Assembly (NCBI GenBank): GCA_947482115.1
Contig: CANKII010000004.1
Span: 221,630-253,629 of the forward strand
Source: Fibrobacterota bacterium
Lineage (GTDB): Bacteria > Fibrobacterota > Fibrobacteria > UBA11236
Reading direction: 5' to 3'
Length of the DNA stretch: 32,000 bases
Part shown: positions 7,723-14,065 of the stretch, in pieces
Layout of the letters: every line of letters starts with the position of its first letter
Position numbering within the stretch: the first letter of the stretch is position 1
Translations under genes and position numbers: made by a program
The notes under the pieces: generated by a model
Seen by the model: only the letters and a program-made list of their open reading frames with translations
Database searches by the model: none
Told to the model about the DNA's origin: nothing

Positions 7723-8361
7723 TCAGACTGCAGTGTCGGCTTCAATGGCCTGTTCCTGCTTGGCCTTGCATTGAATGCACATCTTGGCAGTGGGTACCGC
7801 TTCTAAACGTGCCTTGGGAATAATCTTTCCACAGCTCTTACATATGCCATAAGTTCCCGCGCGAACCCGATCCAACGCTTCCTCGATGTAGAACAGGTAA
7901 CGGCCTTCGCGGCTGGCCATGTGAAAGGCCTGCTCGCGATCCTGCGTTTCCGTGGCGTGATCCGCCAGATGATAGGCATGGCTGGACAAATCACCCGCAC
8001 CATCCTTGGCGTTGAGGCGCATACTGTTGTCTTCGATGTAATCGAGTTCCTGAATCAGGGTTTCTTTTTTCTCGTTGAGGAGCTTCTCGAAAAATTTGAG
8101 CTCTTCCTTGTTCATGCGCGTGCGCGTATCCGTGGACACTTTGGAATTTCCTTTGGGGTGTTTGGATTGAACCGGTGCCGGACTTTTGGCCGCCGGTTTT
8201 GAAATGACAACAGGTTTGGCCTTGACTGCCGCCTTGGCAATGGGTTTGGCGGCGGGTTTGGCCTTTGCCACAGCCTTCTTAGGAGCCGCTTTTTTCACAG
8301 GCTTTGCCGCGGATTTCACCGAAGCTTTGGGTTTGGAAGCCTTTTTATTCGCCTTTTTCAT
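7723..8361 (-). CDS. DksA/TraR-family C4 zinc-finger protein with a Lys/Ala/Pro-rich (histone H1-like) N-terminal extension
   Basis: The C-terminal part reads DLSSHAYHLADHATETQDRE...YGICKSCGKIIPKARLEAVPTAKMCIQCK, a CxxC-x17-CxxC DksA/TraR finger. The N-terminal 85 or so residues read MKKANKKASKPKASVKSAAKPVKKAAPKKAVAKAKPAAKPIAKAAVKAKP.... The ATG at 8361 is preceded by GGGAAGGA and lies 19 nt after the ileS stop. Confidence 0.85.
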   Translation of the reverse strand: MKKANKKASKPKASVKSAAKPVKKAAPKKAVAKAKPAAKPIAKAAVKAKPVVISKPAAKSPAPVQSKHPKGNSKVSTDTRTRMNKEELKFFEKLLNEKKETLIQELDYIEDNSMRLNAKDGAGDLSSHAYHLADHATETQDREQAFHMASREGRYLFYIEEALDRVRAGTYGICKSCGKIIPKARLEAVPTAKMCIQCKAKQEQAIEADTAV

Positions 8362-8380
8362 GCCAAATCCTTCCCTGTAT

Positions 8381-11300
8381 TTATGCCACGACGTAAATGC
8401 GTGCTTGTTCGCCTTCAACATCCATATCGCAAAAAACCGCGCCCTCACCCGACTCATCAAAGCGGACGGAGGACGCCAAAACCTCGGCGGAAATATAAGT
8501 TAGATGGGCTTCCAGCGCTTGACGAAGCAGGGGTGTTGAACCTTTTAACAAGACGGAAACAGTGTCCGTCACGGCCAGCCCGGCCTCCTTGCGCAAGTTT
8601 TGGATTCGGCTGATGGTTTCCCGGGCCAGCATCTCTAATCGCAAGGCTTCGTCCACCACGGTATCCAGCGCCACCGTCAATTCCGGAGTAGCGGTGACCG
8701 CCAAATCGGGCGATACTTCACGGACAACTTGCAGGTCTTCCGCTGTTAAAGTCACTTCTCCCAAGTCCAAAGGCCGGCCTTCCAGAATGGCTTGGATATC
8801 GTCATGGCCAAGCTGGGCAATCTTGTCGGCCACAGGCTTCATATTTTTGCCCAAACGCGAACCCAAGGTTTTGAAATTGGCTTTGGCTTTATACTTCACG
8901 AAGGAAGACTCATCCAGAGTGACTTCCACGGACTTCACGTTCAGTTCATCGCGGATCAAATCTTCAAAAGAAACCATCCACTTGCGCTGCTCTTCCCCTC
9001 GCACCACGACAATCAATTGCTTTAAGGGCTGGCGATTCTTGATATTCCGTTCGGCGCGCAAGGTTCGACCCAGATTCACAGCCTGACGGGCCAACGCCAT
9101 CTTGGCGTTCAAGGTTTCGTCGAACAGGGCTGGGTCGAAAACAGGGTAATCGCAATGATGAACGGAAACGGTTGTGGCGGATACCGGTTCACGAACCAAG
9201 ATCTGATAAATCTCTTCCGACAAAAACGGAAGAAAGGGCGCGAGAACTTTGGAGAAATCCACAAGGATCCGGTACAACGTGGCATAAGCCCCGTTCTTGT
9301 CCTGATCATTTTCCGATTTCCAGAAACGGCGGCGCGAACGGCGGATGTACCAGTTGGTGAGATCATCCACAAATTCCACCAAGGCAGGAACGACATTATA
9401 AAGCCGATAGGCTTCCATCTCGACTTTAACACGGCTCAACAGCGATTGCAGATCGGAAAGAATCCAGCGGTCGAGTTCATTCTGTGAAACCAAATCCTGA
9501 CCGGGTTTCCAGGTCAGTTGGCCTTTGGATGCATCGGCATTTGCATAAGTGGTAAAGAGCGACAGGGAGTTCCACAACGGTAGCAGCACTGCGCGCACAA
9601 TGTTCTTCACTCCAACTTCGGAAAATTTGAGCTCTTCGCCTTTCACAGCGGCGGAGTCGATCATGAACAACCGCACCGCATCCGCTCCGACACGGTTGAT
9701 CAACTCATTCGGATCGGGATAATTGCGCAAACGCTTGCTCATCTTCTGGCCGTCTTCCGCCAGAATGATGCCGTTCACAATCACGTTCTTCATCGCGGGC
9801 TTTTGGAACAAGGCTGCGGAAAGCACGGTCAGCGTATAGAACCAGCCGCGCGTTTGATCCAAGCCCTCAGCGATGAAATCCGCCGGGAAAGATGCCTCGA
9901 AGACTTCGCGATTCTCGAAAGGATAATGGTTCTGCGCATACGGCATGGAACCGGATTCAAACCAGCAGTCGAGTACTTCGGGCGTGCGCTTGTAGGACTT
10001 GCCTTTGGCATTGAAGGTTTTTTTGTCCGATGTTTTCAGGACGATTTCATCCACGATGTGTTTGTGCAAATCTTCCACGTGAATTCCGGAAAGCGCTTCC
10101 AGTTCTTCGCGGCTGCCCACGCAAATCATGTCGCCGTCTTCTGCGATCCAAACCGGAATACAGGTTCCCCAAAAGCGATTGCGGGAAAGATTCCAGTCGC
10201 GCGCACCATCCAGCCATTTTCCGAAACGTCCATCGCGAATATGTTCCGGCACCCAGCGGATTTGCTGATTGCTGTCGATCATCCATTGCTTCAAAGTTTT
10301 GGTTACTGCGGGCCCTTCGACAGGCTCAGGGACCGCAGTAAGCTCCTTATCCAACGCGAGGAACCAATTCTTCTGCGCTCGATATAGCAGTGGCACATCA
10401 GTACGCCAGCAATGCGGATAGCTATGCTCAAATGTTTCGTGTTTGAAAATCCGGTTCTGGGATTTGAGATGATGGATAATGCTCTTGTCAGCATCCTTCG
10501 CTCCGACCGAAGTCCATTCGGGAACGAGATGCGTGAATTTCCCCTCGGCGTCCAGTGGATCGAAAAGACCCAGACTCTCCTTCATGCCGAGCTGGAAATC
10601 CTCTTCGCCAAAACTCGGTGCGATATGCACGGCACCCGTGCCATCGGAATCGCTGACGAAATCCGCAGCCAGCAAAGTGTATTGCCGTTCGCTCATATAC
10701 GGAGCGTATTCAAACAAAGGCTTGTAACGGCGGCCCAACAAGGCCTTCCCCATTACCTTATCCAACACCGGATCGTTTTCACCGAAATAAGACAACCGTC
10801 GCGACTCGGCGATCCAGTATTTCTTTTCCTGATGCGACACCAGGGTGTATTCCAGATCCTCTTTGATCGCGATGGCGAGGTTGCTCGGCAAAGTCCATGG
10901 CGTCGTCGTCCACACCAGCAGCACTTCGTCGGAACCTTCCAACGGAAAGCTGACGGTGATGGAAGGATCCTGCCGCATGCGATAGCCCTGATTGACTTCG
11001 AAGTTGCTGAGCGACGTCGCGAGCGCGGGGCTGTAGGGTTGAATGCGGTAGCCCTGATAAATGAGGCCCTTGTCGAAACATTGTTTGAACACCCACCACA
11101 CGGATTCCATGAAGGAGAGATCCATGGTTTTGTATTCGTTGTCGAAATCGACCCAGCGGCCCATGCGCGAAACGGTGCGGCGCCATTCCTGCGTGTACTT
11201 CAACACTCCGGCGCGGCAGGCTTCGTTGAAATTCCCGACGCCGTGGTTCTGGATGTCGCGCACGGTGTTCAGGCCGAGTTGATCCTGGATGATGTTTTCG

Positions 11301-11575
11301 ATGGGCAGGCCGTGGCAGTCCCAGCCGAAGCGGCGCTCGACACGGAAACCCTTCATGGTCCAGTAGCGCGGGACAATGTCCTTGATGGTTCCGGCGAGGA
11401 GATGGCCGTAATGCGGAAGCCCGGTCGCAAACGGTGGACCATCATTAAAGACGAAGCTTTTTTCCGCGGGCCGGCGGCTGACGCTTTCGCGAAAAGCATT
11501 ATCCTTTTCCCACAGCGCGAGAATGCGCTCTTCGAGCGAAGGGAACGAGGCGTCGGAATCTATGGGACGGAACAT
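8381..11575 (-). CDS. ileS: isoleucine--tRNA ligase (long, type-2 form, 1064 aa)
   Basis: The HIGH motif is PHYGHLLAG and the KMSKS motif is GQKMSKRLRNYPDP. The WDCHGLP, TTTPWTLPSN and DQTRGWFYT blocks are present. Confidence 0.97.
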   Translation of the reverse strand: MFRPIDSDASFPSLEERILALWEKDNAFRESVSRRPAEKSFVFNDGPPFATGLPHYGHLLAGTIKDIVPRYWTMKGFRVERRFGWDCHGLPIENIIQDQLGLNTVRDIQNHGVGNFNEACRAGVLKYTQEWRRTVSRMGRWVDFDNEYKTMDLSFMESVWWVFKQCFDKGLIYQGYRIQPYSPALATSLSNFEVNQGYRMRQDPSITVSFPLEGSDEVLLVWTTTPWTLPSNLAIAIKEDLEYTLVSHQEKKYWIAESRRLSYFGENDPVLDKVMGKALLGRRYKPLFEYAPYMSERQYTLLAADFVSDSDGTGAVHIAPSFGEEDFQLGMKESLGLFDPLDAEGKFTHLVPEWTSVGAKDADKSIIHHLKSQNRIFKHETFEHSYPHCWRTDVPLLYRAQKNWFLALDKELTAVPEPVEGPAVTKTLKQWMIDSNQQIRWVPEHIRDGRFGKWLDGARDWNLSRNRFWGTCIPVWIAEDGDMICVGSREELEALSGIHVEDLHKHIVDEIVLKTSDKKTFNAKGKSYKRTPEVLDCWFESGSMPYAQNHYPFENREVFEASFPADFIAEGLDQTRGWFYTLTVLSAALFQKPAMKNVIVNGIILAEDGQKMSKRLRNYPDPNELINRVGADAVRLFMIDSAAVKGEELKFSEVGVKNIVRAVLLPLWNSLSLFTTYANADASKGQLTWKPGQDLVSQNELDRWILSDLQSLLSRVKVEMEAYRLYNVVPALVEFVDDLTNWYIRRSRRRFWKSENDQDKNGAYATLYRILVDFSKVLAPFLPFLSEEIYQILVREPVSATTVSVHHCDYPVFDPALFDETLNAKMALARQAVNLGRTLRAERNIKNRQPLKQLIVVVRGEEQRKWMVSFEDLIRDELNVKSVEVTLDESSFVKYKAKANFKTLGSRLGKNMKPVADKIAQLGHDDIQAILEGRPLDLGEVTLTAEDLQVVREVSPDLAVTATPELTVALDTVVDEALRLEMLARETISRIQNLRKEAGLAVTDTVSVLLKGSTPLLRQALEAHLTYISAEVLASSVRFDESGEGAVFCDMDVEGEQARIYVVA
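10303..10341 (+). repeat. palindromic loop-conserved element, copy 1, in frame inside ileS
   Basis: TTACTGCGGGCCCT-TCGACAGGCTC-AGGGACCGCAGTAA has 14-nt arms with one G.A mismatch. It is read on the minus strand as ...LTAVPEPVEGPAVT... of IleRS. Confidence 0.8.
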
Positions 11576-11738
11576 GGTGTCTTTTCCAGAAAGGGAAGAA
11601 AATTAGCCTCTTTTTACCTGTTTATATTTCCTCAATATGCTCGAAGTCATAGAAATCATAGTACAGCCCTAAAACAGGCATAGGATGGGTGGAAGAGCGA
11701 GCGATGAAACAGGCAAATAGGTAGTGTAGAATGAAAAT

Positions 11739-12770
11739 ATGAATACGCAAGAAATCAAAAAAGATTTGACTGAAAATGCCTTAAAGTTTTTGACTCAATC
11801 AATCAACGAATTTGACGAAAATCTACAGTTTTCCGTCATCCACTTTTTCTCTTCTATAGAACTTTTTTTTAAGGCTCGATTACTGGATGAACATTGGACT
11901 CTGCTATATGAAAAGCCTGAAGAGGCGCAGAGTGGAAATTTCTTAATGGGCGACTTTAAGTCTGTCACCTTAAGCTCCTCTATCAAAAGGCTTCGAAACA
12001 TTTCCCAGGCAGGCATAACGCAGGCAGAGGAACAATGCTTTCAGAAAATACGACTCCATAGAAATAAGGCGTTGCACTTTTTCCACACATTTCATAGGCC
12101 GGATCTCGCTTCATTAAAGGAGGAGATAATTTCGTTACAATGCCAAGGCTGGCAGTTTTTATATGACCTTCTTCTGAAGAAATGGGATCCGCATTTTTCA
12201 GATTTTCGCGAAAGGGTATATGAATGTCATCATCTAATGCTCGGTCAAAGAAAATATCTGACGAAAAAATTTGAACTGAAGAAAAGCGAGATTGAGTTCG
12301 CTAAAACTTCGGGAATTGAGGTGAATGTATGCAGAATTTGTGGATTTCAGTCGAGCTTGCTTCGTGAAATTTTAGGGCCCCTATTTCAAGGTGATTGTAT
12401 CGTCTGTGAAAAATGCGTGACTTTAATAACGGTCACATGCCCAAGGTGTTCAGGCAAAATTTATAGCTATGAGATGGGAGAGGGTGTTTGCGGTTCTTGC
12501 TCCGAAAAAGTCGATTTGGCCTATATGAAAGAACATCTTGACGAAGATTGCACATCTTTGAGCGATCTCGCAGCAGGAGAAGGTGGGGCTGCGTATTGTT
12601 CACTCTGTGAGTTCCGTGAAGAATGCGTGATTGAAATTCAAGAGGAATATCTTTGTCTAAATTGCCATACCATATTCAAGGATTTTTATCGATGTGGTTC
12701 ATGTTATTCTAGAGTTTCTGGAGAAGATGATTTTAGCGTTATGAATGGGTGTCCTGGCTGCTTTTATTGA
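11739..12770 (+). CDS. hypothetical protein: HEPN-like (DUF4145-like) N-domain with an R-N-x3-H motif, fused to a C-terminal module with eight CxxC pairs
   Basis: A long ORF sits in a visibly AT-rich stretch. The N-terminal helical region contains QKIRLHRNKALHFFH (Rx4H). The C-terminal half has CRIC, CIVC(EKC), CPRC, CGSC, CSLC, CLNC, CGSC and CPGC. I recognise no family for the whole protein. Confidence 0.6.
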   Translation: MNTQEIKKDLTENALKFLTQSINEFDENLQFSVIHFFSSIELFFKARLLDEHWTLLYEKPEEAQSGNFLMGDFKSVTLSSSIKRLRNISQAGITQAEEQCFQKIRLHRNKALHFFHTFHRPDLASLKEEIISLQCQGWQFLYDLLLKKWDPHFSDFRERVYECHHLMLGQRKYLTKKFELKKSEIEFAKTSGIEVNVCRICGFQSSLLREILGPLFQGDCIVCEKCVTLITVTCPRCSGKIYSYEMGEGVCGSCSEKVDLAYMKEHLDEDCTSLSDLAAGEGGAAYCSLCEFREECVIEIQEEYLCLNCHTIFKDFYRCGSCYSRVSGEDDFSVMNGCPGCFY

Positions 12771-12918
12771 TGCAACAACTCAAGATGTTAACATAAGGAA
12801 CAGAAAAACTGTCTCCACTTGGCCAATACCGTTTAAGCCACCATTTCTCTCAAATCCTGCTGAAAAAGCACTGAAAATCCGGCTTGCTCCTTCCATCGAA
12901 TAGGATTACCTTAAATAC

Positions 12919-13137
12919 ATGATGAAGGCGAAAGAAGTCGAAAAGCTTGCGCTGGAGCTGCCCGAAGAGCAAAGAGCCGCGCTCGCTGCCCATATTCTGG
13001 ATTCCCTCCCCCCGCTTTTGACTGACGAAGATGAAGGCCTTGCGGAAGCCCTGCGAAGAGACGCAGAAATGAATTCCAATCCAACTATCGGAATATCCCT
13101 GCAGGATTTCGATCGGCGGATTCGCCAGCGTAAGTGA
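12919..13137 (+). CDS. type II antitoxin, 'putative addiction module component' family (PF09720-like)
   Basis: MMKAKEVEKLALELPEEQRAALAAHILDSL...EALRRDAEM matches the L.LP..ER..LA..LL.SL pattern of this family. Its stop overlaps the toxin start as GTGA. Confidence 0.75.
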   Translation: MMKAKEVEKLALELPEEQRAALAAHILDSLPPLLTDEDEGLAEALRRDAEMNSNPTIGISLQDFDRRIRQRK

Positions 13138-13433
13138 CCTTGAAGGTCGCCTTCCACCCGAAAGTTTTTTCGGAGGTGGATGCGATTCTTTCCTACTACG
13201 AACAGATTTCCCACTCCACGCTTGCTGCGGATTTTTACGAAGAGTTTCTTTGGTTTGTTCGCAAAGCCGCGGAGCAACCCGATATTTACAGCCTTCAGGC
13301 AGGGAGTTTACGCAGAGTGAATCTAAGCCGCTTCCCTTACAACTTTCTGTTTCGAATCCTAGATGACCATATTCGAATTCTTGTGGTTCGGCATCACGCC
13401 AGAAAACCGTCTTATGGAACCGGAAGGGCTTAG
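13134..13433 (+). CDS. type II toxin, RelE/ParE superfamily
   Basis: It is 99 aa. ...LRRVNLSRFPYNFLFRILDDHIRILVVRHHARKP is the characteristic ParE/RelE C-terminus. A 4-nt overlap with the upstream antitoxin suggests translational coupling. Confidence 0.8.
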   Translation: MTLKVAFHPKVFSEVDAILSYYEQISHSTLAADFYEEFLWFVRKAAEQPDIYSLQAGSLRRVNLSRFPYNFLFRILDDHIRILVVRHHARKPSYGTGRA

Positions 13434-13470
13434 TCTCCCCGATTTCAGGACAAAGACCTAATTTTTTGGC

Positions 13471-14046
13471 ATGAGCAGCGAAAAGATTATTCTCGAACCG
13501 AACGAAGACGGGGTTTACGTTCCCAGCGGTGCGGCAGCGGACAACTCAAGTTCCCCCGGAAAACGACTTTTCAAGTCCATGGGCCGAGTGATCATCGGAC
13601 TTGGTTTGTTGACCGGGTTGATGCTGCTGATTCTCATGTTCGTCAAAGGCGGCGTATGGGTGGGGGAACAAGCCTATCCCCTGCTGGCCTCCATTTCCAA
13701 ACTCGCTTTATTCCTCACCATCTTCATTCTCACACCCCTCGCCTATTTCAAACCCACCCGAAGTTTCGCGGGTCTCGGCATTTACTTCGCTTCATACGTC
13801 TTCGGATTGACCCTTTGGGTATGGAGCTTAATCCTGACCTACAATCTCTGGGGCATTTTCGCCGTCATCATCGGTCTGTTCTTCGCGGGCCTCGGCATTG
13901 TGCCGGTGGCGCTGCTGGCAACGCTCTTCAGCGGAAAGCTATCCACCTTCGGCGAACTGCTTCTGCTCATGGCTTTTGTGCCTATCTGCCGGATGTTCGG
14001 CATCTTCATGGTGGCCAAGGCCACCGCGCTTCGCAATTCACGCTAG
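13471..14046 (+). CDS. integral membrane protein, function unknown
   Basis: It is 191 aa with about five hydrophobic spans: VIIGLGLLTGLMLLILMFV, LALFLTIFILTPLAYF, GLGIYFASYVFGLTLWVWSLIL, IFAVIIGLFFAGLGIVPVALLATLF and LLLLMAFVPICRMFGIFMV. I recall no family for it. Confidence 0.55.
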   Translation: MSSEKIILEPNEDGVYVPSGAAADNSSSPGKRLFKSMGRVIIGLGLLTGLMLLILMFVKGGVWVGEQAYPLLASISKLALFLTIFILTPLAYFKPTRSFAGLGIYFASYVFGLTLWVWSLILTYNLWGIFAVIIGLFFAGLGIVPVALLATLFSGKLSTFGELLLLMAFVPICRMFGIFMVAKATALRNSR

Positions 14047-14065
14047 CATTTTGGATTTTTAACCC

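Follow-up and report, generated by a model that had tools for sequence, protein, structure and literature searches.

A 32,000-nucleotide stretch of DNA from a Fibrobacterota bacterium (GTDB lineage Fibrobacteria, UBA11236; NCBI GenBank assembly GCA_947482115.1, contig CANKII010000004.1, positions 221,630 to 253,629 of the forward strand), hereafter called the window and numbered from its first letter, carries a 343-amino acid (aa) open reading frame (ORF) at 11739–12770 on the forward strand, between ileS and a glycosyltransferase gene. Here, we examined this ORF as a candidate member of the HEC-08 family of phage-defense proteins. The gene stands out by its composition. In a sliding profile, the G+C fraction (GC) falls from 0.50–0.59 in ileS to 0.36–0.44 over 11550–12900, and the three hand counts given in the original prediction were reproduced exactly (18 of 60 at 11761–11820, 21 of 60 at 12241–12300, and 36 of 60 at 10981–11040 within ileS). 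The ORF itself has a GC of 0.397, whereas the window averages 0.518 and ileS 0.534; its GC at third codon positions (GC3) is 0.38 versus 0.64 for ileS. It is flanked by a spacer of GC 0.393 that runs from the start of ileS to the gene (11576..11738) and presumably carries its promoter, and by a spacer of GC 0.405 (12771..12918) that closes the islet. A single weak sigma-70-like match was found in the upstream spacer at 11704–11732; the promoter and terminator scan gave no excess over shuffled sequence (three promoter-like sites versus a shuffle mean of 3.3).

The protein contains QKIRLHRNKALHFFH, with R108-N109-x3-H113, as had been noted at the outset. Residues 1–150 (11739..12188, +) constitute a predicted DUF3644-type HEPN domain, which was delimited using the PADLOC DUF3644 model, AlphaFold, and Foldseek. 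In the AlphaFold model, the core helices of this domain span residues 3–24, 29–49, 95–113, and 123–148, and an insert (residues 50–94) separates helices 2 and 3, which in the model matches the description of HEPN domains by Anantharaman et al. 2013 (PMC3710099). According to the same study, the Rx4-6H motif of the HEPN active site closes helix 3, ahead of the loop to helix 4, and the residue right after its arginine is polar, usually N, D, or H; helix 2 often bears E-x3-[KR]; and the arginine and histidine of the motif mediate metal-independent endoribonuclease chemistry. The segment R108-N109-K-A-L-H113 (12060..12077, +), at the C-terminal end of helix 3, was assigned as the Rx4-6H catalytic motif from its conservation and its alignment with His-128 of Escherichia coli HEC-08, and E41-x3-K45 in helix 2 (11859..11873, +) was assigned as the second motif from conservation in a 53-sequence alignment comprising the window protein and 52 homologues. 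In the AlphaFold model, R108-N109-x3-H113 ends the helix 95–113, the next loop being the least confident of the model, and E41-x3-K45 lies inside the helix 29–49; these placements were read from the secondary-structure string of the model alone, not from distances between residues.

The HEPN domain is followed by a helical linker (residues 151–192; 12189..12314, +), which in the AlphaFold model comprises helices 154–168, 171–180, and 182–190. The all-helical N-terminal region that had been estimated at about 140 aa is thus helical as proposed, but in the model it extends to about residue 190. The C-terminal half contains the eight CxxC pairs previously counted, starting at residues 198, 220, 234, 251, 287, 306, 319, and 338, plus a ninth, overlapping one at 223. 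When these knuckles were assigned by their order along the chain, they would build four zinc ribbons. Ribbon 1 (C198/C201 and C220/C223, also C226; 12330..12416, +) is modeled as beta-hairpins, and its four cysteines are invariant in all 53 aligned sequences. Ribbon 2 (C234/C237 and C251/C254; 12438..12500, +) is restricted to the long, HEC-08-type subgroup and is kept in E. coli HEC-08. Ribbons 3 (C287/C290 and C306/C309; 12597..12665, +) and 4 (C319/C322 and C338/C341; 12693..12761, +) are again invariant in 53 of 53.

The whole-protein AlphaFold model had a pLDDT of 92.4 and a pTM of 0.85, and the model of residues 1–190 had values of 94.1 and 0.90. A Foldseek search with the N-terminal domain alone ranked the HEPN protein AF_0298 (2hsb) first (probability 0.99, TM-score on target 0.63, E 0.28), and 12 of the 19 top matches were HEPN proteins (HepT/MntA complexes, Csm6, and HEPN-MNT); SO_3166 (5yep_B) was also recovered. 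In the whole-protein search against PDB and BFVD, no match reached E ≤ 1e-3, and HEPN proteins recurred among the weak matches; the helical region drew spurious helical-repeat and BAR-domain matches, and BFVD returned short zinc-ribbon fragments only. A profile built from the family alignment, searched against PDB sequences, retrieved no HEPN chain and only weak zinc-ribbon or RING matches, the best at E 0.0016.

The protein was placed in a described family by the PADLOC models. The HEC-08 model (PDLC04162) matched residues 7–341 over profile positions 16–349 of 358 (E 3.2e-67, 225 bits), and the PADLOC DUF3644 model matched residues 3–153 (E 5.2e-41). As controls, E. coli HEC-08 scored 575 bits on the HEC-08 model, and the other four long homologues scanned matched it over their full length. 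BLASTP alignment with E. coli HEC-08 (WP_001313577.1) was collinear over the full length (343 columns, 27% identity, E 2e-32); H113 of the window protein aligned with H128 of the E. coli protein, and all 16 ribbon cysteines were common to both. The two proteins therefore share, end to end, a DUF3644-type HEPN domain, a helical linker, and four CxxC-pair zinc ribbons, and both are encoded by single genes without a conserved partner. They differ in that the window host belongs to the Fibrobacterota and not to the Enterobacteriaceae, and in that the window protein is 23 residues shorter, the N-terminal leader of the E. coli protein being mostly missing from it, as is the C-terminal tail.

HEC-08 was one of nine candidates embedded in Hma systems that were described by Payne et al. 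(bioRxiv 10.1101/2024.01.29.577857), and it was among the seven that lowered phage plaquing in E. coli. In that study, the H128A substitution, which removes the Rx4-6H histidine, abolished phage defense by HEC-08, and its N-terminal domain resembled the HEPN toxin SO_3166 (PDB 5YEP), with the C-terminal part having no structural match. The assayed protein originates from E. coli ECOR52 (WP_150698383.1/WP_001313577.1); for our comparisons, the full sequence was taken from strain Nissle 1917 (NZ_CP022686.1). In RefSeq, the Nissle 1917 entry WP_001313577.1 is still named "hypothetical protein", and 342 of 5,426 complete E. coli genomes carry the first 399 bases of the E. coli gene at ≥99% identity. 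The phage protection is known for the ECOR52 allele only, and for the window allele it is predicted from sequence. Together, these comparisons make it likely that the 343-aa ORF encodes a single-gene anti-phage protein of the HEC-08 family that was horizontally acquired and for which we propose a HEPN ribonuclease (RNase) mechanism. The original prediction could not place this architecture in any described defense or toxin system; that view is superseded, since PADLOC holds the phage-tested HEC-08 and since fusions of HEPN domains to zinc ribbons were already listed in 2013 (PMC3710099). Judged by these matches, the locus is a divergent member of a known, phenotypically validated defense family, not a new kind of system.

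We then characterized the family. A word-indexed search returned 14 relatives and a profile search 127, and an exhaustive hidden Markov model (HMM) scan of 1.84 billion representatives (50%-identity clusters) returned 2,483 at E ≤ 1e-3, of which 800 passed E ≤ 1e-30. Nearly all of the 150 best-scoring entries of the HMM scan were full-length matches, with two shorter proteins of 271 and 281 aa. In the 53-sequence alignment, K45, E51, W53, G71, N109, and H113 are invariant, R108 is kept in 52 sequences, and position 41 is glutamate in 47 and aspartate in five. The arginine and histidine, whose conservation among homologues had been proposed as a test of the HEPN assignment, are thus retained. 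In the Foldseek ranking, HEPN structures come first, though with a best E of 0.28 and none at 1e-3, so that the fold search by itself lends this assignment moderate, non-significant support. Together with the PADLOC DUF3644 match and the placement of the motif in the model, the sequence-family and motif evidence supports the predicted HEPN identity of the N-terminal domain and its conserved R-N-x3-H. The four-ribbon array that had been suggested is likewise supported, by 12 cysteines that are invariant in 53 of 53 sequences and by the 16 that are common to the E. coli protein.

The alignment split cleanly by the second ribbon. Eighteen of the 53 proteins (335–391 aa), including the window protein and E. 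coli HEC-08, possess C234/C237/C251/C254, whereas the other 35 (308–351 aa) lack these four cysteines. Three of the three-ribbon proteins were scanned, and all matched the PADLOC model PDC-S64, a phage defense candidate, nearly end to end; PDC-S64 outscored HEC-08 in two of them and scored about equally in the third. The window protein scored 32 bits on PDC-S64 versus 225 on HEC-08. PDC-S64, whose proteins are about 310–325 aa long, represents a sister group that shares the HEPN domain, R-N-x3-H, E-H-W, and three of the four ribbons, and that lacks ribbon 2. The extra ribbon of the four-ribbon group may separate sensing specificities.

The relationship to other HEPN families is more distant. 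Anantharaman et al. 2013 (PMC3710099) described the EC042_2821 HEPN family, which "overlaps with DUF3644", as being fused to winged helix-turn-helix (wHTH), restriction endonuclease, and zinc-ribbon domains and as occurring in restriction–modification (R-M) operons. The window protein shares this N-terminal superfamily, and the zinc-ribbon fusions and R-M operons listed there fit the family, an R-M context being repeated at one homologue locus (P0010, see below). The EC042_2821 prototype has at its C terminus a domain of the restriction-endonuclease fold and in some cases also a wHTH domain; the window protein has neither. The HepT/MntA-type toxins (SO_3166; PDB 5YEP, 7BXO, 6M6W) and AF_0298 (2HSB), which matched the N-terminal model best in structure, share the four-helix HEPN core, and HepT has the Rx4H motif found in the window protein; TM-scores on target were modest (0.37–0.63) and E-values non-significant. 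The HepT/MntA-type toxins are, however, standalone domains of about 130 aa under the control of a nucleotidyltransferase antitoxin, whereas in the window protein an MNT partner is absent and a ribbon array is fused to the HEPN domain. Pfam and NCBIfam gave nothing significant for the 343-aa protein, with zinc-finger matches below threshold only; DUF4145, in which the R-N-x3-H motif had been noted as also conserved, gave no Pfam match. Among the 53 family members, Pfam DUF3644 matched 14 (E ≤ 0.01, best 4.7e-6) and DZR_2 matched 10; the DZR_2 model does not reach the window protein.

A further comparison concerned Ishtar (Ist1/Ist2), single-gene HEPN (DUF4145 or DUF3644) effectors with an uncharacterized C-terminal domain that cause loss of the plasmid RP4 with little toxicity and occupy variable spots between core genes (bioRxiv 10.64898/2026.07.06.735840). 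By analogy, the window protein could act against plasmids or other mobile elements, clearing an incoming replicon by cleaving RNA needed for its replication. The two are alike in being monogenic, in having an N-terminal HEPN domain with R-N-x3-H and a C-terminal domain of unassigned role, and in their location, the window gene being likewise the lone gene of its kind in a variable spot flanked by core genes. However, the one Ishtar sequence compared, WP_011133822.1, could not be linked to the HEC-08 family by BLASTP (E 6.8) or hhalign (probability 0.8%), the detectable likeness being limited to the R-N-x3-H segment, and it has no zinc-ribbon array, the Ishtar C-terminal domain not being a ribbon array rich in cysteines. 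Moreover, the Ishtar phenotype is plasmid loss and not phage defense, whereas the one HEC-08 protein assayed gave phage protection (bioRxiv 10.1101/2024.01.29.577857). Membership in the Ishtar family was ruled out on sequence by these values for its sole member compared, and we consider an Ishtar-like role unlikely for the window gene.

Downstream of the HEC-08-type gene lies the toxin–antitoxin (TA) pair that had been reported, and both of its members passed their Pfam cut-offs, although barely: an antitoxin of the Unstab_antitox family at 12919..13137 (+; PF09720, 26.9 bits versus a cut-off of 23.3) and a ParE/RelE-family toxin at 13134..13433 (+; PF05016, 24.3 bits versus 23), which overlap by GTGA at 13134–13137. 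This is a type II ParDE-like layout, in which a small antitoxin gene is followed by an overlapping gene for a ParE/RelE-fold toxin. The three genes might form one unit, in which the TA module controls the HEPN protein or is set off by it, since they share an orientation and lie close together (148 bp apart, then the 4-bp overlap) and since related genomes lack all three, along with a downstream 191-aa ORF, in the same interval. Several observations speak against such a unit. The GC of the pair (antitoxin 0.539, toxin 0.483) is host-like and differs from the 0.40 of the HEC-08-type gene, so composition does not put the pair inside the islet; the AT-rich islet that had been drawn at 11580–13433 therefore holds for 11576–12918 and not for the TA genes. 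The pair is complete as a two-gene module of its own, and the E. coli HEC-08 gene defends alone (bioRxiv 10.1101/2024.01.29.577857). Finally, no Unstab_antitox or ParE gene was found beside a homologue in any of the seven loci examined, and we therefore treated the TA pair as an independent neighbor, a separate module outside the HEC-08 unit. A functional three-gene unit is thus very improbable, the TA pair was ruled out as part of the HEC-08 system by its composition and its absence beside homologues, and its presence no longer serves as evidence of a defense context, for which it had originally been cited.

The 191-aa ORF (13471–14046, +) is hydrophobic and putatively encodes a membrane protein; it has host-like composition (GC 0.54, GC3 0.70), belongs to no Pfam family, and found no counterpart by tblastn in the related genomes.

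To place the gene in its genomic setting, we compared the interval between ileS and the glycosyltransferase gene among relatives. By its IleS, whose best match is 80% identical, the host falls among uncultured Fibrobacterota of the class Fibrobacteria. In two related genomes with 76–77% identical IleS (L028 and L009), a family-9 glycosyltransferase gene lies about 1.4 kb from ileS, and the interval carries a 430-aa ORF in L028 (5784–7184) and a 391-aa ORF in L009 (6627–8000), which are dissimilar to each other. The same interval of the window (11576–14065) holds the HEC-08-type gene, the TA pair, and the 191-aa ORF, and tblastn of the L028 and L009 intervals revealed no homologue of any of these. 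Since the cargo differs among relatives and the HEC-08-type gene is absent from them, the interval is best regarded as a variable spot and the low-GC gene as a recent acquisition. The horizontal acquisition of the gene is thus supported, by its GC of 0.40 versus 0.52 for the window and by its absence from the same interval in relatives. In the islet flanks, we found no convincing direct or inverted repeats, no tRNA gene, no integrase, and no Rfam family. Across the window, L028, and L009, the ileS–glycosyltransferase interval appears as a variable spot of Fibrobacteria.

The surroundings of seven homologues were then inspected. One homologue (P0010; 10001–11080 in L089:4449–14311) is embedded in a type I R-M operon, with hsdM/hsdS on one side and hsdR on the other; Hypoth_Ymh (HEPN), GIY-YIG, and TIR_2 genes accompany it, making this a multi-gene case of the embedding pattern. 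Another (P0016; L091:281–21035) lies between a bDLD3/AAA_5 gene set and a cluster of SNF2 helicase, DUF1156, AAA_15 ATPase, and DUF499 genes; this adjacent cluster recalls helicase–methylase–ATPase (Hma-like) systems. Two others adjoin SMODS and DUF6602 genes (P0002) and a NERD gene (P0003), respectively. A fifth (P0015) is found among transposases in a mobile-element island, and the copy of E. coli Nissle 1917 (L088:9001–10101) adjoins an integrase fragment and a dynamin-family/patatin cluster, being located in a mobile-element island and not embedded in a defense system. The seventh (P0011) is found among housekeeping genes. Thus, six of the seven loci have an R-M operon, defense genes, or mobile elements as neighbors, and the lack of a defense context that was to speak against the original prediction was not seen among them.

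The assignment of a defense function must be weighed against several points. The identity to the sole tested HEC-08 member is 27%, so that function is transferred over a long distance, and the assay of that member in E. coli was run from a plasmid that supplied an additional inducible promoter (bioRxiv 10.1101/2024.01.29.577857). In the studies consulted, RNase activity, an RNA target, or a trigger has been demonstrated for no member of the HEC-08 family. No Foldseek match reached E ≤ 1e-3, the best value being 0.28 with the domain alone, whereas with the whole protein the first HEPN match came at 2.0. Pfam DUF3644 (PF12358) did not match the window protein at E ≤ 1, so the link to this family runs through the PADLOC models and sibling sequences; since siblings do match, we regard the window protein as a divergent relative beyond the reach of the Pfam model. 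As to context, the gene lies neither inside nor beside a recognized defense system, its only conflict-type neighbor being the TA pair of other composition, and homologue P0011 is located among housekeeping genes. The window gene is not part of an Hma or R-M system, unlike HEC-08 as first described, and stands alone between ileS and the glycosyltransferase gene; embedding in Hma or another multi-gene defense system was the basis on which HEC-08 was discovered and is not a functional requirement.

The lack of an adjoining defense system and the setting of P0011 would also fit an inactive relic, or a housekeeping protein for RNA processing or zinc binding that acts outside conflicts with mobile elements. 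However, the ORF is intact and of full length and keeps every catalytic and zinc-binding residue that is invariant in the family. Moreover, the distribution of the gene is patchy, its composition is foreign, it is absent from close relatives, and most of the sampled homologues are situated in defense or mobile contexts. A relic or housekeeping role is therefore extremely improbable. The standalone effector that the original prediction envisaged is supported, as a defense-type gene of horizontal origin, by the HEC-08 match, the low GC, and the absence of the gene from relatives.

For the HEC-08-type protein of the window, we propose the following mechanism. The N-terminal HEPN domain would act as a metal-independent endoribonuclease and, like other HEPN RNases, would probably dimerize to form a composite active site. 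The RNase would be held in check by the helical linker and the array of four zinc ribbons until these bind a signal of infection, be it a phage protein or nucleic acid. The activated enzyme would then cut RNA and phage multiplication would stop, possibly at a cost to host growth. Here, we infer for the window protein its RNase activity, its dimerization, its RNA target, the sensor role of its zinc ribbons, and its activity in this host. A more specific version, which we advance as a speculative and improbable proposal, is that the four-ribbon array is a modular sensor that directly gates the HEPN RNase, that the split into four- and three-ribbon proteins reflects different triggers, and that the cue of this allele differs from that of the E. 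coli protein and may come from plasmids or other elements instead of phages.

Elsewhere in the window, two further ORFs near ileS were noted. A 423-aa ORF (10412–11683, +) is wholly antisense to ileS and, almost certainly, not a gene but a shadow of the GC3-rich ileS frame. A DksA/TraR zinc-finger ORF (7723–8460, −) reaches 245 aa if read from a TTG start, which gives it a long N-terminal extension that overlaps the 3′ end of ileS, and about 190–230 residues of the ORF are conserved in relatives. The ENA annotation of the same contig has a DksA gene of 65 aa only and two small ORFs on the opposite strand, and the gene model here is uncertain.

These results allow a gene that would otherwise be a hypothetical protein to be labeled as a HEC-08-type defense gene and extend the reach of HEC-08 into uncultured Fibrobacterota, within a family that is large, with about 2,500 clusters at 50% identity. 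As the HEC-08 kind of system was already known, the value of the finding is modest and lies in the annotation and in a family-level map of residues and subgroups. The map of invariant residues, the clean split between four- and three-ribbon proteins, and the high-confidence model are resources for work on the mechanism. If the ribbon array is indeed a modular sensor, the family would represent a compact, reprogrammable scaffold that couples a sensor to an RNase.

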